Shown here: piece by piece, positions 23,345-29,304 of the stretch
How the letters are laid out: each line of letters begins with the position of its first letter
How positions within the stretch are numbered: the stretch's first letter is position 1
NCBI RefSeq assembly: GCF_900232105.1
Contig: NZ_LT934425.1
Location: forward strand, 3,240,001 to 3,272,000
Length of the DNA: 32,000 nt
Source of the DNA: Candidatus Kuenenia stuttgartensis
GTDB taxonomy: Bacteria; Planctomycetota; Brocadiia; Brocadiales; Brocadiaceae
Direction of reading: 5' to 3'
Translations under genes and position numbers: made by a program
The notes under the pieces: model-generated
Databases searched by the model: none
Seen by the model: only the letters and a program-made list of their open reading frames with translations
Told to the model about the DNA's origin: nothing

Positions 23345-24373
23345 ATGCATAAGTTAAAGGTTGCGGTAATAGGTGTCGGCCATTTAGGGAAAGAGCATGC
23401 CAGGGTATTTGCCGAATTACCAGGCGTCGAATTGGTTGGAGTGGTTGATGCACTGAACAAACAAGCAGAAGAAATAGCCCGGCGCTATAATACACAATGG
23501 TATGTAAATTATCAGGATGTAATAGATAAGGTTTCTGCCGTAAGTATTGCTGTTCCCACAAAATCGCATTACGCAATTGCAAAAGACTTCCTTACTCATG
23601 GTGTTCACGTCCTCGTTGAAAAACCAATGACAGGAACTGTATCTGAAGCGAAAGAATTAATAAGTCTAAGCAAGAAGAAAGGACTTGTGCTTCAGGCGGG
23701 GTATATTGAGAGGTTTAATCCGGTTATTGTTGCAATAAAAAAAATCTCTTCCAATCCAAGATTTATAGAGTGCCACCGTTTAAGTCCCTTCACGTTTCGA
23801 TCTGCCGATATAGGCGTTGTCCTAGATTTAATGATACATGACATAGATATAATACTGAATATGACAGGCTCAAAGGTAAAAAAAATTGATGCTGTTGGCG
23901 TAAATGTTATTGCCGACAAAGAGGATATTGCAAATGCACGCATTCAATTTCAGAATGGCTGCGTGGCAAACATCACTGCCAGCAGGGTGTCTATTCAGCC
24001 TATGCGGAAAGTGAGATTATTTTCCGAAGACTCATATATTTCCATTGATTATCAGAAGAAAGAAGGGTTAATATATAAAAAATCCCCCAAACTAACCCTC
24101 AGTGCGCTTAATATTTCAGAGATGGATGTTTCGACCATTGCAGACCTAAAAAGCCATGTGTTTGGAGATTTGCTAAAGGTAGAACATATTAAAATGGATG
24201 ATTACGAACCACTAAAAAAAGAACTAGAGTCTTTTGTTACGTGTGTTTTGGAAAACAAGGAACCGGAAGTTTCCGGAGAAGAAGGTTTAAAGGCAATAGA
24301 GGTTGCAAATGATATTTTGCAGGAGATAGAAAGAAATCTTGCGCACTCACGCGCACAATGTATGGAGGATTAA
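23345..24373 (+). CDS. Gfo/Idh/MocA-family NAD(P)-dependent oxidoreductase (possible UDP-GlcNAc 3-dehydrogenase, GnnA-like)
   Basis: It has a Rossmann N-terminus (KVAVIGVGHLGKEH) and the EKP motif (LVEKPM). The specific substrate is inferred only from its position after lpxA. Confidence 0.8.
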   Translation: MHKLKVAVIGVGHLGKEHARVFAELPGVELVGVVDALNKQAEEIARRYNTQWYVNYQDVIDKVSAVSIAVPTKSHYAIAKDFLTHGVHVLVEKPMTGTVSEAKELISLSKKKGLVLQAGYIERFNPVIVAIKKISSNPRFIECHRLSPFTFRSADIGVVLDLMIHDIDIILNMTGSKVKKIDAVGVNVIADKEDIANARIQFQNGCVANITASRVSIQPMRKVRLFSEDSYISIDYQKKEGLIYKKSPKLTLSALNISEMDVSTIADLKSHVFGDLLKVEHIKMDDYEPLKKELESFVTCVLENKEPEVSGEEGLKAIEVANDILQEIERNLAHSRAQCMED

Positions 24374-24376
24374 ATT

Positions 24377-24604
24377 ATGGAGAAAGAAGTTCTTATTACA
24401 AAAAAAATGAGTACAGGGGAAGTGACAAAGAAATACCCTGCGACTAAAGAAGTTTTTGCAAAGTATTTTGGAAAGGGTTGTTTTGATTGCCCCTCTTTTG
24501 GTACGGAGGATATAAATTTGGCATGTATGATGCATAATACGGATGTTGATAAATTTGTGCAGGAGCTAAATGAAGCCGCATATAAGGAAATAAATAAGAC
24601 ATAA
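24377..24604 (+). CDS. DUF1858 / hybrid-cluster-protein-associated redox-disulfide-type small protein
   Basis: 75 aa matching the family pattern: I.....I.E...KYP....VF...G..C..C......T.E.A...H..D...F..ELN, with a CxxC-like pair (CFDC). GGAGGA is upstream, and the gene starts 3 nt after the preceding stop. Confidence 0.7.
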   Translation: MEKEVLITKKMSTGEVTKKYPATKEVFAKYFGKGCFDCPSFGTEDINLACMMHNTDVDKFVQELNEAAYKEINKT

Positions 24605-24697: not shown

Positions 24698-25003
24698 TTG
24701 AAACATATTGACCTGCAAGAAAAAATAACATTCCACAAAGATCATTTTATTCCCAATATTCTGTATGCCTCCCCGAAAGTTAAAATGCCTCTCATTTGCA
24801 TGGAGCCGGGGCAAGTAATTCCTCCACACGGCGGGAATTCTGCAGGTATATTTTATGTGAAGGAGGGCAAAGGGATTTTTACCTTGGATGATGAGAAAAT
24901 CACAATGGAAAAAGGAATGGTTATTGTTGCGCCTGAGGGTTCTTCTCGGGGGATGAAGTGTCTTGAAAGAATGGTCGTTTTAGCAGTAAGCGCAGGAGGG
25001 TAG
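24698..25003 (+). CDS. Small single-domain cupin protein (metal-site His largely missing)
   Basis: About 100 aa with a beta-barrel cupin pattern (MEPGQVIPPHGG....IFYVKEGKG...........G..I..P). Only one His remains where the G(x)5HxH(x)3-4E motif is expected. The start is TTG, which is the only option after the in-frame TAA at 24689. Confidence 0.6.
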   Translation: MKHIDLQEKITFHKDHFIPNILYASPKVKMPLICMEPGQVIPPHGGNSAGIFYVKEGKGIFTLDDEKITMEKGMVIVAPEGSSRGMKCLERMVVLAVSAGG

Positions 25004-25013
25004 AGGTATTAAC

Positions 25014-25322
25014 ATGGGTAAAATAGTTTTAGAAGAAAAAGTAAAATTTTCACAGCAGAGTTATTTATCGGACACATTATTTAAGAGTAACAACCTCCTG
25101 CTGGAATTGTTGTGCATGGAAGAAGGCCAGGAAGTTATTTCGAAAATAACGAATTCGCAGGTAATTCTCTTAGTTGTTTCGGGCAATGGTTCTTTAACGC
25201 AGGGGTCTGATACCAGTACCCTTAAGGCGGATTCGTTAGTAATTTTTGAAGGCGTTGAACAGTTTGAAATAAAAGCAAGTAAACAAATGACTATATTGCA
25301 GTATGTTATACCGCAACCGTAA
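25014..25322 (+). CDS. Small single-domain cupin protein, paralog of the preceding gene (no His in the cupin motifs)
   Basis: It is colinear with the preceding ORF (I.L.EK..F, L.CME.GQ, V.G.G). No His is present in the motif region. Confidence 0.6.
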   Translation: MGKIVLEEKVKFSQQSYLSDTLFKSNNLLLELLCMEEGQEVISKITNSQVILLVVSGNGSLTQGSDTSTLKADSLVIFEGVEQFEIKASKQMTILQYVIPQP

Positions 25323-25347: not shown

Positions 25348-25584
25348 ATGAATATTGAAGACCGAATTATACTGGACGTGAGAAATATTATACCAAGAGA
25401 GCGACATCCAAAAATTTTTAATACGTTTGATGGATTAAGAGCGGGAGAGATGATGGTATTGATAAATGATCATGACCCAAAACCTTTAAAGTACCAATTA
25501 GAAGCGGAGCGTCCCGGTCAAATGGAATGGAAATATATCGAGCAAGGACCGGATATCTGGAAGGTTGAGATAGTAAAAAAATAA
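25348..25584 (+). CDS. DUF2249-domain protein
   Basis: 78 aa matching the DUF2249 pattern: LDVRN..P..RHP.IF..FD.L..GE......NDHDPKPL.YQ........W.Y...GPD.W.V.I. AAGGAG is upstream. Confidence 0.8.
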   Translation: MNIEDRIILDVRNIIPRERHPKIFNTFDGLRAGEMMVLINDHDPKPLKYQLEAERPGQMEWKYIEQGPDIWKVEIVKK

Positions 25585-25632
25585 TGGTTTTCAGCAAGGA
25601 AAATTAATTAATGTACAAAGGAGGCATAGAGT

Positions 25633-27408
25633 ATGTATAAATTTTCAAAAGTCGCAGTGGTGGTGTGCCTGTTCGTCCTTTTTGTTGGCGCATGGTTTGG
25701 TTTCAGGTCTGTACACGCAGATGCGGAAATTAACGTAAAGGAAAAAAAAGAAAAGAAAGAAAAAATTTCTTCCAAATCTGAAAAATCAGAAAAAAGGGAT
25801 GCTACCGCAGAGATAAAAGATACAAAAACCGAACAAAAGACTGTGACTCCAAAAGAAGAGAAAAAAGAAATTGTAAAGCAGGAAAAACCAGAAGAAAAAG
25901 CAGAACCACCTGCTTCTGAAAAACAGGAAGAAAAACATGCCCCTGTCGTCAAAGAAGATATGGCTGACACTCATCCTAAAGATGCCAGAACCATACAACA
26001 AATTATTTCCGAACTTACCGGAGAGAAAATCGGGCCAGACAACTCCGGAGATGTGTATCATTTAGGTTTAACAGCGACATATACGCCGCCAAAGGAATTA
26101 TTGCCTGGCGAAGGCAAATTTGGGAAATTATTTAGTTTTTTACCTCTTATGAGATGGTACGATCCTGATCATTATTATACACCAAACCAGGCAATTGGAG
26201 GTGAATTCACGCACGGCGAATGTCTTATGTGCCATACGATCCAGACCCCCGGTATTGTAGCTCAATGGAAGAAGAGTAAACATGCTGCGGTAGAACAGGT
26301 GGTTGGCTGTGATAAATGCCATGGCAACAATCACCAGCAATTATACATGCCTTCATGGCAACACTGCGGGGAGTGTCATCCGGAGCAAAAAGAAGGGCAT
26401 CGTGGTGGGGCAATGGCTTCGCACACCTATGCCTTTCATGTGAGTACAATCGAAGCCCCGTGGCAGATTGCAAAGCCTGCAGCCGAGGTTACTGCCTGTG
26501 CTACATGTCATGGGATAGCGGAGAACAGGTGTGACGGATGTCATACCAGGCATGATTTTTCCTTAGCTGAAGCAAGAAAACCAAACAATTGTGGTATTTG
26601 CCACACAGGTTTGGACCATTATGAATACGAAATGTACAGGGAATCCTATCATGGGATGATTTATGAGTCGGAGCAGCATACGTGGGACTGGACAAAACCC
26701 ATGAAACCTGAAAATTACAAAACGCCCACTTGTGCATATTGTCATATGAGAGATGGCGAACATAATGCACAGAAATTCTCCACAGTTAATAGTCACATGG
26801 GCACATCATTGGTCGACAGGGGCGCCCCAAAATATAAGGAGGCCAGACAGAGTTGGATAAACACATGCAAAGGGTGCCATTCTCCAAGATTTGCGGCTGA
26901 TCAACTTGAGGCGATGGATGAAGCGATAAAAGTCAGTTTTACAAAATGGCGTGAAGCCATGAAAATAGTGGTTGACCTTTATAATGACGGGATGCTGGAT
27001 CCGATGCCGAAAGATTTGGCGCCTGACTACGCAGGACATTATACCTTTAGTCTCATTGGTGGTGAAGGCAGGATGTATAATGTATCCGATATAGAGCGGA
27101 CGGCATTTGAGATGCTGGTGTATATTACCAATGCCGTTTACAAGGCAATGGCACACGGAGCAATGTATGGCGCTACTTATGGTAAAGGCGCTTTTCTGCA
27201 GGACCGCTGGTTGATTCAGGTAAAGGCGGAAGCAAGCAAACTTAGAAGAATAAGGGCGTTGGAAGAAAGAGTGGGGATAAAGCATAAGGCATACGATTTC
27301 TGGAAGCACGGTGAATATACCGACTTGCTCCTGGGTTGGAAGAGAAAGCCGGGAGACGTGGACAAGGCAGCATGTAAACACGAGGGCGCTGATTGTTTGG
27401 TTGAATAG
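25633..27408 (+). CDS. Octaheme hydroxylamine-oxidoreductase (HAO)-family cytochrome c, exported, with a Lys/Glu-rich N-terminal spacer
   Basis: It has eight CxxCH motifs: CLMCH, CDKCH, CGECH, CATCH, CDGCH, CGICH, CAYCH, CKGCH. The block CDGCHTRHDFSLAEARKPNNCGICHTGLDH is colinear with the HAO core. The signal peptide has a VHA|DA cleavage site. AGGAGG is upstream. Confidence 0.9.
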   Translation: MYKFSKVAVVVCLFVLFVGAWFGFRSVHADAEINVKEKKEKKEKISSKSEKSEKRDATAEIKDTKTEQKTVTPKEEKKEIVKQEKPEEKAEPPASEKQEEKHAPVVKEDMADTHPKDARTIQQIISELTGEKIGPDNSGDVYHLGLTATYTPPKELLPGEGKFGKLFSFLPLMRWYDPDHYYTPNQAIGGEFTHGECLMCHTIQTPGIVAQWKKSKHAAVEQVVGCDKCHGNNHQQLYMPSWQHCGECHPEQKEGHRGGAMASHTYAFHVSTIEAPWQIAKPAAEVTACATCHGIAENRCDGCHTRHDFSLAEARKPNNCGICHTGLDHYEYEMYRESYHGMIYESEQHTWDWTKPMKPENYKTPTCAYCHMRDGEHNAQKFSTVNSHMGTSLVDRGAPKYKEARQSWINTCKGCHSPRFAADQLEAMDEAIKVSFTKWREAMKIVVDLYNDGMLDPMPKDLAPDYAGHYTFSLIGGEGRMYNVSDIERTAFEMLVYITNAVYKAMAHGAMYGATYGKGAFLQDRWLIQVKAEASKLRRIRALEERVGIKHKAYDFWKHGEYTDLLLGWKRKPGDVDKAACKHEGADCLVE

Positions 27409-27581: not shown

Positions 27582-27944
27582 ATGAAAAATTATCAATATT
27601 GTTTTTTATTCATCGCTTTTTTTTCCTCCTGTTTTTTGGGATGCTATAAAAAACAGACAATTTTACTGGAAAGAGAAGCTATTTGGGAAGTATTCGAAAG
27701 AGAATGCCAAAAATGTCATAAGATGAATGGAAAAGGGAGTCTTGTTGGCAGATTATTCTTTAATATTCCTGATTTTAACAATGTGAAATGGCAGGATAAT
27801 GCTTCGGATTCGAGATTGATTATTCATGTAGGAAATGGATTAAGAAAAATGCCAGGCTTTAAAGGCAAGCTAAAAGATGAAGAGATTGTGGACTTGGTAA
27901 AAATATGTGTTCGGAGTTTCTATCCGCCCGTCGGGCAAAGATAA
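27582..27944 (+). CDS. Monoheme class-I c-type cytochrome, probable lipoprotein
   Basis: It has a single CQKCH heme motif and a distal Met context (RKMPGF). The N-terminal hydrophobic segment ends in the lipobox-like FLGC. AGGAG is upstream. Confidence 0.75.
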   Translation: MKNYQYCFLFIAFFSSCFLGCYKKQTILLEREAIWEVFERECQKCHKMNGKGSLVGRLFFNIPDFNNVKWQDNASDSRLIIHVGNGLRKMPGFKGKLKDEEIVDLVKICVRSFYPPVGQR

Positions 27945-28075
27945 TACTGCATGAATTTTAGTTGAAACAATAGTGATTTTTCACCGATTTTATGATATCA
28001 TTCTTGCTTATTTGAGAGTATTTCATTTCTTTATTTTGCTGTCGATGACGGCTTTTTCATTTTTTGAGGCAAATT

Positions 28076-28438
28076 ATGCTGCGAGAGATGTGTAAATCCA
28101 AAATACATGGCGCTACGGTAACTGAAACCAATCTGGAATATAACGGAAGCATTACCATCGATAAGTCTCTTCTCACTGCGGTAGATATTCTGCATTATGA
28201 GCGGGTGCAGGTTTTGAATATAAATAATGGAACAAGAGTAGAAACATATGTCATTGAAGGAGAACAAGACTCCGGGATAATTTGCTTAAACGGGGCAGCT
28301 GCAAGATGGGCGCAACCTGGAGATCGTGTTATTATTATTGCATATTGCCTTATCAATAACAAAGACGCTATAGGATGGAAACCAAAGATTATTTTGGTTG
28401 ACGCAAAAAATAAACTCATCAAAAACCTGCCAACATGA
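28076..28438 (+). CDS. panD: Aspartate 1-decarboxylase (pyruvoyl-dependent)
   Basis: It has [23 protein letters not shown], including the self-processing Gly-Ser site. ATG 28076 with GAGG 6 nt upstream is preferred over TTG 28064. Confidence 0.9.
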
Positions 28439-29304
28439 GACGGATTTTATTCGAAATCCCTATCCCTTTTTTCTCCCAAAGCGTACCTATATACTCCTAT
28501 GGGTTCATGTTAATGGTGGCATTTCTTGTTTCCATAGCCGTTGCGCGCTGGAGGGCGAAGAAAGAAGGTATCGACCCTAATGCCATCACAGATTTGGGGA
28601 TATATCTGATTTTTGCCGGAATAGCAGGGGCAAGGTTGTTTTTTGTAATACAATTTTATGAAGATTATAAAAATAATTTATTAAATATATTCAAAATTTA
28701 TGAAGGTGGTCTGGTGTATTATGGTGGATTGTTTGCCGCAATTATTATGCTATTCGTTTTTGTTAGAAAACGAAAGTTGCCCGTATTAAAGGTGATAGAC
28801 ATTATTGCGCCATCTACTGCACTGGGATTAGCCTTTGGACGTATTGGATGTTTTTTGAATGGATGCTGTTTTGGCAAGATTTCACTTAATCTGCCGTGGG
28901 CAGTTTATTTTCCCAGGACAGTTGATAGTCAAGGCATGGTTGATGGCAGCCCGGTATTTATTTATCACTATCAACATGGGTTGGTTCTCCTTTCCGCTCT
29001 GCATTCATTACCGGTTCATCCCGTACAATTGTATGCTTTTTTTTCAAATATAGCATTATTTTTTATTCTCAACAGTTTTTTCAGATTTCGAAAAAGAAAT
29101 GGAGAGATTGTGCTCCTTTTTGGCATGGTGTATCCCATTATAAGATTTTGTATGGAAGCACTTCGGGGAGATAATCAATTATATTTTAACTGCTTTACCA
29201 TTGCGCAGATAATAAGCATTATACTATTTGCCGTTTCAACTACTATTTTTGTTTTGTTCAGAATAAAAACAAGTAAAAACATTTCGCATATTTCTTCCTT
29301 GTAA
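28435..29304 (+). CDS. lgt: Prolipoprotein diacylglyceryl transferase
   Basis: It is multi-pass with YGFM.....[15 protein letters not shown] and [13 protein letters not shown] motifs. The start overlaps the panD stop (ATGA). Confidence 0.9.

Follow-up and report, generated by a model that had tools for sequence, protein, structure and literature searches.

Gene identity and content of the locus

The window, a 32,000-nucleotide stretch of the Ca. Kuenenia stuttgartiensis genome, carries an octahaem HAO-like gene preceded by a small gene cluster and followed by a monohaem cytochrome gene (Table 1). The octahaem gene is kusta0043, since the length of the reading frame equals the 591 aa given for this hao gene in the 2012 gene table (PMC3482989). 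It is one of the ten HAO-like genes catalogued for Kuenenia, and an identical protein was found on 276 contigs. In Pfam the protein matches Multi-haem_cyto (1.1e-41) and Hao_C (1.6e-11). Antisense ORFs over the gene (e.g. 25608-25970 and 26806-27381, minus strand) were treated as artefacts; the first is a Phe/Ser-rich reverse reading of Lys/Glu codon repeats.

Table 1. Coordinates of features in the window.
Feature	Position	Strand	Basis
DUF1858 protein (hybrid-cluster-protein-associated redox disulfide domain), first gene of the cluster	24377..24604	+	Pfam 3.9e-13; NCBIfam TIGR03980
Cupin_2 protein	24698..25003	+	Pfam 5.2e-10; 75-87% identical, syntenic
Second, divergent cupin-like protein	25014..25322	+	Synteny; Jettenia ortholog called Cupin_2
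DUF2249 protein, directly upstream of kusta0043	25348..25584	+	Pfam 2e-29
Shine-Dalgarno GGAGG, 8 nt before the kusta0043 ATG	25620..25624	+	Read from sequence
kusta0043, octahaem HAO-like gene	25633..27408	+	ORF list; 591 aa + stop
Signal peptide or signal anchor, residues 1-29	25633..25719	+	Sequence, AF2, ortholog N-termini
Lys/Glu/Pro/Thr-rich low-complexity linker, residues 30-118	25720..25986	+	Sequence, AF2
HAO catalytic core, residues 119-577	25987..27363	+	phmmer, AF2, Foldseek
Haem motif 1, CLMCH (C197)	26221..26235	+	Sequence, register alignment
Haem motif 2, CDKCH (C226)	26308..26322	+	Sequence, register alignment
Haem motif 3, CGECH (C245), canonical	26365..26379	+	Sequence, register alignment
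Haem motif 4, CATCH (C289, proximal His293), putative P460 haem	26497..26511	+	Register with HOX/HDH/AOB HAO
Haem motif 5, CDGCH (C300)	26530..26544	+	Sequence, register alignment
Haem motif 6, CGICH (C320)	26590..26604	+	Sequence, register alignment
Asp328-His329 (GLDH), predicted proton-abstracting catalytic pair	26614..26619	+	Alignment
Haem motif 7, CAYCH (C367)	26731..26745	+	Sequence, register alignment
Met389, distal pocket, equivalent to KsHOX Met323 / HDH Met319	26797..26799	+	Alignment
Haem motif 8, CKGCH (C412)	26866..26880	+	Sequence, register alignment
Tyr516 (TAT), predicted cross-linker to haem 4 of the neighbouring subunit	27178..27180	+	Alignment
C-terminal tail, residues 578-591 (KAACKHEGADCLVE), C581-x-H583-x4-C588	27364..27405	+	Ortholog alignment
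Monohaem c-type cytochrome (CQKCH), lipoprotein-type signal (..FLGC)	27582..27944	+	Pfam Cytochrome_CBB3 2.9e-10

In the HAO1-HAO10 nomenclature (Okubo et al.), kusta0043 is by deduction HAO4, because HAO8 and HAO9 are missing from Kuenenia and HAO10 is confined to Scalindua. The literature searched, including the supplements of PMC12758564, did not contain a published equation of the two names. The HAO4 clade is described as a Brocadiaceae core gene within the HOX/HDH subclade that is unidentified in Scalindua (Okubo et al.). In our distance tree the clade of kusta0043 contains sequences from Kuenenia, Brocadia, Jettenia and Loosdrechtia. A Scalindua sediminis homolog (L012) shares 67-70% identity and lacks the upstream gene cluster.

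Haem motifs and catalytic residues

The protein contains exactly eight CxxCH motifs (first Cys at 197, 226, 245, 289, 300, 320, 367 and 412). All eight are in register with a KsHOX-like protein, HDH and the HAO of ammonia-oxidising bacteria (AOB), which bears out an earlier note on this DNA that had read them as lying in HAO order. Motif 4 presumably bears the catalytic P460 haem, by NeHAO numbering. Seven additional His columns (H217, 234, 264, 307, 340, 377 and 508) are at least 96% conserved, judged from alignment columns, and seven is the number that seven bis-His haems need.

Residues were aligned with phmmer against PDB sequences and in a 107-sequence MAFFT alignment, and the two agreed. 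The earlier note had taken the Asp328-His329 pair of GLDH for the catalytic pair and had placed Tyr516 on the Tyr that cross-links to the catalytic haem. Both placements hold in these alignments. The Asp-His pair aligns with those of all three solved oxidative enzymes: HOX D262-H263, HDH D255-H256 and NeHAO precursor D291-H292 (mature Asp267/His268). Tyr516 aligns with HOX Tyr451, HDH Tyr462, NeHAO Tyr467 (precursor Y491) and Y490/491 of the AOB HAO sequences. The surrounding segment AMAHGAMYGATYGKG runs free of gaps, from the FEM helix on, against GLAHVNPGGWTYTEG of N. europaea HAO, and it aligns with AYAHMSMYNQTYGNG of HOX and GMAHGSWNDATYSDG of HDH. The Tyr is kept in every member of the orthologous clade except P0029, a sequence of the Loosdrechtia lineage. 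In all orthologs other than P0029 the Tyr, the Asp-His pair and the AHxxxYxxTYG segment are invariant.

Whether a protein of this family has the cross-linking Tyr is accepted as the genomic sign of its catalytic direction. A 2016 account by Kartal and Keltjens is reported to count kusta0043 with the Tyr-bearing paralogs. In the open papers that mention the gene, no explicit statement that it carries the Tyr was found. A 2025 ancestral reconstruction predicts the HAO4/HAO9/HAO10/HDH/HOX subclade to be oxidative (PMC12758564). The reading of the Tyr and the Asp-His pair is correct, yet already known. The claim that kusta0043 is an additional oxidative paralog stands as far as sequence and tree place it in the oxidative subclass, but not as a new recognition, since the gene is catalogued and its subclade predicted to be oxidative. 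Two recent preprints concern other genes. The "multidomain HAO-like protein" of a 2026 preprint refers to MCO-HAO fusions of the kuste2479 type, which have Trp at the Tyr position, and the up-regulated HAO of an EET-anammox preprint is an ortholog of kustd2021 and hence irrelevant to kusta0043.

Relationship to HOX

The closest solved structures are those of HOX. With phmmer the E-values are 1.9e-179 to KsHOX (kustc1061; 4N4J) and 1.4e-180 to Brocadia fulgida HOX (6T5E), values that exclude chance similarity. The AF2 monomer (mean pLDDT 84, mostly above 90 over the core) superposes on 4N4J in Foldseek with a TM score of 0.92 and an rmsd of 1.5 Å, so that the structure model speaks for the reading in the earlier note. 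These HOX enzymes likewise have eight haems in register, and they share with kusta0043 the Tyr (Tyr451/Tyr449), the Asp-His pair and, in the pocket, Met323 and a Trp. The Hao_C domain is also common to both proteins.

In the distance tree kusta0043 is nested among the Tyr-bearing HOX/HDH-related paralogs, nearer to HOX than to HDH, and the Tyr-less sequences fall outside its group; the phylogeny thus sides with the assignment in the earlier note. Alignment, structure model and tree all came out for that reading, and no outcome named in the note as refuting it was seen in them. The HOX group (P0070, P0074-78) forms a separate clade, and Kuenenia carries HOX kustc1061 as a separate gene. By this placement kusta0043 is not an ortholog of HOX (kustc1061 / HAO1). 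KsHOX comes from the same organism; its genomic context differs. In HOX the signal is short and a linker is lacking, and the mature N-terminus corresponds to the linker-core joint of kusta0043; the C-x-H-x4-C tail of kusta0043 is missing from HOX. The core is 53% identical to the KsHOX-like protein, and HOX Phe209 is replaced by Ala275. Because of this replacement, and since identity is only 53%, the substrate preference of kusta0043 could differ from that of HOX.

Alternative functions

A second hydrazine dehydrogenase, oxidising N2H4 to N2 as a membrane-proximal backup to HDH, is an unlikely identity for kusta0043. HDH (kustc0694; 6HIF) is a P460-type octahaem enzyme whose Tyr462, Asp255/His256, Trp204 and Met319 all have equivalents in kusta0043 (the pocket residues being Trp277 and Met389), with the HDH pocket taken from PMC6469936. 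HDH is also the only NCBIfam model that kusta0043 matches (4.7e-133), and the kusta0043 transcript responds to hydrazine exposure, having been reported as down-regulated (PMC12053348). However, the score against the HDH equivalog (NF052343) is 444.5 bits and the cut-off is 900, which places kusta0043 outside that equivalog. With phmmer the match to HDH (5.7e-119) is weaker than the match to HOX, and the tree agrees. The haem-linking Cys202 of HDH, which forms a thioether, is Ala275 in kusta0043; the CxxxxCH of HDH haem 3 is a canonical CGECH; and the free N-terminus that HDH has at the Val33 position is lacking. HDH is inhibited by NH2OH and NO at low micromolar concentrations. The equivalence of Met389 with HOX Met323, the canonical haem 3, Ala275 and the HDH score below cut-off make kusta0043 HOX-like rather than HDH-like.

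N. europaea HAO (1FGJ, 4FAS) is the prototype of P460 trimers with the cross-link. It is about 26% identical to kusta0043 with a TM score of 0.68-0.70, and its Tyr467 and Asp267/His268 align. In the distal pocket the kusta0043 Met389 corresponds to a Phe in the AOB homolog P0104. In place of an N-terminal tether, the AOB homologs P0103-P0105 have a hydrophobic segment at the C-terminus.

It is very improbable that, despite its Tyr, kusta0043 acts in vivo as a reductase of nitrite, NO or NH2OH, or that the Tyr forms no cross-link. The reductive HAOr (kustc0458/0457; 6H5L) has the octahaem HAO fold in common with kusta0043, but the match is weak (E = 5.6e-42, rmsd 9.4 Å). HAOr, which forms NO from nitrite, has no Tyr cross-link, and the published data tie the Tyr to oxidative tuning, with Tyr-bearing HAOs oxidative and Tyr-less HAOs reductive (PMC8042395). 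A switch of direction seems to be tolerated in the clade, since P0029 has lost both the Tyr and the Asp. Strong reductants can force HOX to reduce in vitro (PMC12485887), and the neighbouring genes are of a kind linked to NO/hydroxylamine stress. Against these points stand the invariance of the catalytic residues in all other orthologs and the strong purifying selection on the gene.

The core has a dN/dS of 0.03, and the protein is 74-86% identical across four genera. Together with the strong Shine-Dalgarno sequence and the reported transcript, this low ratio marks kusta0043 as a functional gene. Biochemical data, protein-level data and a purification of kusta0043 were not found in the searchable literature. 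Nothing in the analysis favours a decaying or silent HOX duplicate with no role of its own, a reading effectively refuted by the selection data, by the synteny kept over the four genera and by a reading frame intact on hundreds of contigs.

N-terminal linker and C-terminal tail

The N-terminus of kusta0043 consists of MYKFSK, a hydrophobic core and RSVHA/DA, with a putative cleavage site; AF2 predicts a helix over residues 2-39. No lipobox is seen, as the hydrophobic core of kusta0043 is not followed by a Cys (..FGFRSVHA/DAE, read from sequence). In the orthologs from Brocadia, Jettenia and Loosdrechtia a lipobox-like (L/F)(G/S)C-(E/K/N)Q is seen, also read from sequence.

The linker that follows has an AF2 pLDDT below 50 over residues 36-104, its DNA holds short A-rich tandem repeats, and it ends in a conserved HPKD(A/K)R junction motif. 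All orthologs have a linker, of about 40-120 aa and of differing sequence, and its dN/dS is 0.13 vs 0.03 for the core. It meets the core where the free N-terminus of HDH enters the active site of the neighbouring subunit. The continuation of the chain at this point in kusta0043 could change how the pocket is reached.

The C-terminal tail follows the pattern C-x-H-[ED/A/V]-G-x-x-C-[LMIA]-x-[ED], which is kept in all full-length orthologs but one that is apparently frameshifted. Three further paralog clades bear a C-x-H-x(3-5)-C tail; HOX and HDH do not. Compared with other Kuenenia species, the kusta0043 tail has 0 nonsynonymous changes in 14 codons at a dS of 0.77; its AF2 pLDDT is 66-80. The earlier note had called the N-terminal spacer (about residues 30-118) and the tail KAACKHEGADC (578-588) non-canonical extras. 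Both are present, but they are the norm for the orthologs of four genera. The literature searched yielded no description of the tether/linker, the Cys-His-Cys tail or the upstream cluster.

Gene neighbourhood

The DUF1858 protein has syntenic counterparts of 83-89% identity in Brocadia, Jettenia, Loosdrechtia and other Kuenenia. The DUF2249 protein is 78-88% identical and always lies immediately 5' of the kusta0043 orthologs. Between these two, the second cupin-like gene is found in Kuenenia, Jettenia and Loosdrechtia and is missing in Brocadia; its product in the window gave no Pfam match. A NirJ/AhbD-like radical SAM/SPASM gene lies alongside in most genera and has been lost in K. stuttgartiensis. 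The synteny of the DUF1858 and DUF2249 genes fits NO/NH2OH chemistry for kusta0043.

Downstream, the monohaem cytochrome gene follows the HAO gene only in Kuenenia species (L006, L007). A terminator-like hairpin lies at 28038-28052, 3' of the cytochrome gene, and none was found between this gene and kusta0043. The cytochrome is a candidate electron acceptor of kusta0043.

Proposed function

To our knowledge, anammox bacteria have about ten HAO-like octahaem paralogs, and functions have been assigned for only HOX, HDH and HAOr. Most probably (roughly 80%), kusta0043 is a P460 enzyme of the HOX type, oxidising NH2OH to NO. The protein would be exported by its N-terminal signal and would carry c-type haems attached at its eight CxxCH motifs. 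It would then form a homotrimer in which a covalent bond links Tyr516 to the adjacent subunit's haem 4 (C289ATCH), giving the P460 cofactor and its spectrum, with a band at 460-475 nm when reduced. NH2OH, and perhaps slowly N2H4, may bind to the five-coordinate iron of haem 4, with Asp328/His329 taking the protons. Three electrons would then pass along the haem chain to a c-type cytochrome, with release of NO as in HOX. The disordered linker of 90 residues may hold the enzyme on or near the membrane, following the lipobox-like Cys in Brocadia and Jettenia and a cleavable signal or signal anchor in K. stuttgartiensis.

The full oxidative module in kusta0043 adds nothing new to the catalogue of anammox HAO paralogs, but the alignments give a residue-level basis for treating it as a predicted second NH2OH- or N2H4-oxidising enzyme. 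A modest added value comes from the tether of the orthologous group, the Cys-His-Cys tail and the conserved DUF1858-cupin-DUF2249 operon, which hint that, besides the abundant soluble HOX, the cell has a separate hydroxylamine oxidase close to the membrane. A more specific model can be offered only tentatively. HAO4/kusta0043 might be a membrane-tethered P460 hydroxylamine oxidase and not a redundant HOX copy, held by a lipid anchor at the lipobox Cys in Brocadia, Jettenia and Loosdrechtia and either held by a signal anchor or released in K. stuttgartiensis. The linker would leave the core at the site which in HDH lines the substrate pocket of the neighbouring subunit, and the C-x-H-x4-C of the tail might tune or gate the enzyme, either as a redox-active disulfide or as a small metal site. 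With the strictly co-conserved cytoplasmic DUF1858-cupin-DUF2249 proteins, and the radical SAM/SPASM protein in most genera, HAO4/kusta0043 may form a module dedicated to handling NO and NH2OH. A pairing of the loss of the radical SAM/SPASM gene with the loss of the linker Cys was considered and dropped as weak, since the Brocadia-type sequences P0008 and P0022 also lack the linker Cys.

Gene identity and phylogenetic placement

The octahaem HAO-like gene is kusta0043; its ORF matches the published length of 591 aa, and a Shine-Dalgarno sequence, GGAGG, precedes the ATG by 8 nt. The exact protein is present on 276 contigs. An earlier note had proposed an additional oxidative paralog. The oxidative assignment is upheld by alignment, fold and tree, but the paralog is not newly recognised: the anammox literature has listed it at least since 2012, when a gene table gave it as a 591-aa hao gene (PMC3482989). 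Another paper pairs it with kustc1061 as the two HOX-type paralogs of K. stuttgartiensis (PMC3655542). As KsCSTR_40830 it is among the ten HAO-like genes catalogued in Kuenenia, and its down-regulation under hydrazine stress has been reported (PMC12053348).

In the HAO1-HAO10 nomenclature, hao1 is kustc1061 (hydroxylamine oxidase, HOX), hao2 is kustc0458 and hao3 is kuste4574; the core genes are hao1-hao4 and hao5B, hao8 and hao9 are missing from Kuenenia, and hao10 is Scalindua-specific (PMC7814187). By elimination, kusta0043 is HAO4; no explicit statement of this was found in the literature searched. A 2025 phylogeny joins HAO4, HAO9, HAO10, hydrazine dehydrogenase (HDH, kustc0694) and HOX in one subclade and did not find HAO4 in Scalindua. 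Its ancestral reconstruction already predicts the HAO4-containing subclade to be Tyr-bearing and oxidative, with the Tyr acquired at the root of the major anammox clade and lost only in the HAOr/HAO3/HAO7 subclade (PMC12758564). Since the paralog is catalogued and its subclade so described, the oxidative-paralog finding is already known. The only potentially new points, of modest interest, are the presumed N-terminal tether, the tail with its Cys-His-Cys motif and the conserved cluster of small genes, of which no mention was found in the searchable literature.

A neighbour-joining tree without support values (101 sequences, 489 columns, BLOSUM62 distances) covered homologs with E <= 1e-20 to the kusta0043 protein, the remaining Kuenenia paralogs not included. 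The protein groups tightly with Kuenenia, Brocadia, Jettenia and Loosdrechtia sequences (74-86% identity). This clade adjoins other Tyr-bearing groups and the HOX clade; HDH is more distant, and the Tyr-less 'PH' sequences P0094-P0102 fall outside, which places kusta0043 with the Tyr-bearing paralogs.

Catalytic residues and predicted fold

A phmmer search against all PDB sequences matched HOX of Brocadia fulgida (6T5E, E = 1.4e-180) and K. stuttgartiensis (4N4J, 1.9e-179), HDH (6HIF, 5.7e-119), N. europaea HAO (NeHAO; 4FAS, 1FGJ and 6M0P, about 1e-46) and the reductive Kustc0458 (6H5L, 5.6e-42). Both phmmer and a MAFFT alignment of 107 sequences pair AMAHGAMYGATYGKG of kusta0043 without gaps with NeHAO GLAHVNPGGWTYTEG, where precursor Y491 is mature Tyr467, and also with HOX AYAHMSMYNQTYGNG (Tyr451) and HDH GMAHGSWNDATYSDG (Tyr462). 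The cross-linking Tyr named in the literature is Tyr467 in NeHAO, Tyr449 in B. fulgida HOX and Tyr462 in HDH (PMC6469936 for HDH). Tyr516 therefore occupies the cross-linking position. Asp328-His329, within GLDH, share columns with the catalytic pairs of NeHAO (D291-H292, mature 267/268), HOX (D262-H263) and HDH (Asp255/His256). There are exactly eight CxxCH motifs (first Cys 197, 226, 245, 289, 300, 320, 367 and 412), all in register with HOX, HDH and HAO of ammonia-oxidising bacteria (AOB). Conservation also reaches at least 96% in seven additional His columns, the count required by seven bis-His haems. Because the Tyr, the Asp-His pair and the haem motifs align, what had been seen in the sequence by eye is confirmed in every detail. 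Pfam adds Multi-haem_cyto (1.1e-41) and the HAO C-terminal domain (1.6e-11).

An AlphaFold2 monomer model built from the MAFFT alignment has a mean pLDDT of 84 and a pTM of 0.77, with pLDDT mostly above 90 in the core (about residues 120-580) and below 50 at residues 36-104. Foldseek against the PDB ranks K. stuttgartiensis HOX first (4N4J/4N4M; TM 0.92 normalised to target, rmsd 1.5 A, about 489 columns), followed by 6T5E, HDH, NeHAO and then the reductive 6H5L. Since the cross-link is inter-subunit and the model is a monomer, the trimer geometry is inferred from homology.

Likely function

By the accepted criterion, an HAO that has the Tyr is oxidative and one that lacks it is a reductase, as tested experimentally for HAOr (PMC8042395). 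All sequence and fold criteria that could be tested here point to membership of kusta0043 in the oxidative P460 HAO family, and we put the probability that it is an oxidative P460 enzyme at about 0.8.

With lower confidence as to the exact substrate, a HOX-type enzyme converting NH2OH to NO is favoured, because of the Tyr, the pocket, the low HDH score and purifying selection. In the alignment, distal Trp277/Met389 correspond to HOX Trp211/Met323 and HDH Trp204/Met319, and the pocket is HOX-like. BLASTP gives 53% identity between residues 120-577 and a K. stuttgartiensis HOX-like protein. Against orthologs in other Kuenenia species, dN/dS is 0.03 in the core and 0.13 in the linker, and the 14-codon tail has zero nonsynonymous changes (dS 0.77), indicating strong purifying selection. 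Sequence and model together favour a protein that would work like HOX, and minor N2H4 oxidation is possible. Orthology to HOX was rejected. Nor is the protein an HDH: the NCBIfam HDH equivalog scores 444 bits, far under the cut-off of 900, the position of HDH Cys202, which gives a third thioether to haem 4 (PMC6469936), is Ala275 (Phe209 in HOX), and the haem 3 motif is the canonical CGECH, whereas HDH has CxxxxCH.

N-terminal linker and C-terminal tail

The N-terminal spacer and two-Cys tail described as non-canonical extras are both present, but they are not exceptional within the clade. In every ortholog a variable linker (about 40-120 aa, with abundant K, E, P, T, A and Q) comes after a signal sequence and closes with a conserved (S/T)HPKD(K/A)R-T-[IV]-Q-[QE]-I junction. 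Orthologs from Brocadia, Jettenia and Loosdrechtia have a lipobox-like (L/F)(G/S)C-(E/K/N)Q at the end of the signal, and most carry C(C/P)xxKK(E/D) late in the linker; K. stuttgartiensis has neither Cys position, with RSVHA/DAE there instead. Neither HOX nor HDH has the linker, and their mature N-termini (Glu37 and Val33) align at Asp117. The free HDH N-terminus lines the active-site pocket of the adjacent subunit (PMC6469936), whereas the kusta0043 chain runs on at this point.

The tail KAACKHEGADC (residues 578-588) belongs to a C-x-H-[ED]-G-x-x-C-[LMI]-x-[ED] pattern kept in essentially all orthologs. C-x-H-x(3-5)-C also occurs within roughly the last 10-20 residues in another three clades of anammox HAO paralogs, Scalindua and Anammoxibacter included (P0051/52, P0055, P0062/63, P0066, P0064-P0069, P0072, P0075, P0079, P0080 and P0082), but is missing from HOX, HDH and AOB HAO. 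The tail may be a disulfide or metal site. Many other HAO paralogs finish with His-rich tails (..HH).

Gene neighbourhood

The conserved order is lpxC, lpxA, GFO-type dehydrogenase, (radical SAM/SPASM), DUF1858, cupin, (second cupin), DUF2249 and HAO4. It is seen in Brocadia pituitae, other Brocadia, Jettenia, a Brocadiaceae MAG, Loosdrechtia aerotolerans and other Kuenenia species, and the small proteins are 75-89% identical across syntenic loci. It is absent around the out-of-clade homologs (Scalindua sediminis, RIFCSP Planctomycetes). NCBIfam describes DUF1858 as a 'hybrid cluster protein-associated redox disulfide domain'. Together with the N-terminus and C-terminal tail, the synteny suggests, by association, a membrane-proximal enzyme tied to NO/NH2OH handling.

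The radical SAM/SPASM gene (413 aa) lies between the dehydrogenase and DUF1858 genes in Brocadia, Jettenia, Loosdrechtia and other Kuenenia species. Identity across these genera is 88-95%, and its best NCBIfam matches are AhbD/NirJ-like, far under cut-offs. At the K. stuttgartiensis position it is cleanly missing, leaving a 3-nt gap, as likewise on 24 contigs.

A monohaem cytochrome gene sits 3' of the HAO gene only in Kuenenia species (77-79% identical at loci L006 and L007); its product is possibly a dedicated electron acceptor. The panD-lgt arrangement recurs in K. hertensis (L007); the proximity of lgt to nearby lipoprotein-like signals is probably coincidental. Several long ORFs run antisense to the HAO gene; the first two mirror the linker Lys/Glu codon repeats as Phe/Ser-rich readings and are almost certainly spurious.

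Coordinates of features in the window and at relatives' loci (L0xx)
Feature	Position	Strand	Remark
Radical SAM/SPASM gene, missing	24373-24377		3-nt gap; junction of GFO-type dehydrogenase and DUF1858 genes
Antisense ORF	25608-25970	-
Antisense ORF	25786-26061	-
kusta0043 ORF	25633-27408	+	591 aa
Antisense ORF	26806-27381	-
Tyr516 codon	27178-27180	+	TAT
Monohaem c-type cytochrome	27582-27944	+	CQKCH, cbb3-type domain; lipoprotein-type signal FSSCFLGC
Terminator-like hairpin	28038-28052		After cytochrome gene
lgt	28435-29304	+	Prolipoprotein diacylglyceryl transferase; about 1 kb 3' of HAO gene, past panD
Radical SAM/SPASM gene	L001:2732-3973		Equivalents in L002, L003, L006-L011
Second HAO4-like copy	L004:5001-6683, L005:5001-6683		P0029
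Second HAO4-like copy	L019:5001-6737		P0026

Divergent relatives

A second HAO4-like copy in Loosdrechtia-like genomes neighbours a Rieske/cytochrome b complex and is not accompanied by the DUF1858-cupin-DUF2249 genes. One such protein, P0026, retains the Tyr and the Asp-His pair. Another, P0029, present in each of two independent assemblies, no longer has either Tyr (AMAHGAMQGAA-GNG) and shows Glu-His at the pair; it may represent a recent oxidative-to-reductive switch within the oxidative clade.

A sister clade (P0041-P0050, P0053, P0054 and P0056-P0060), with loci such as L016 and L017 from RIFCSP Planctomycetes and Brocadiales MAGs, keeps the cross-link Tyr and has Glu-Gln for the catalytic Asp-His and a Trp after TYG (AKAHGAVYSPIYGYW). 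With these residues the clade departs from the simple equation of Tyr with HOX/HDH-like chemistry.
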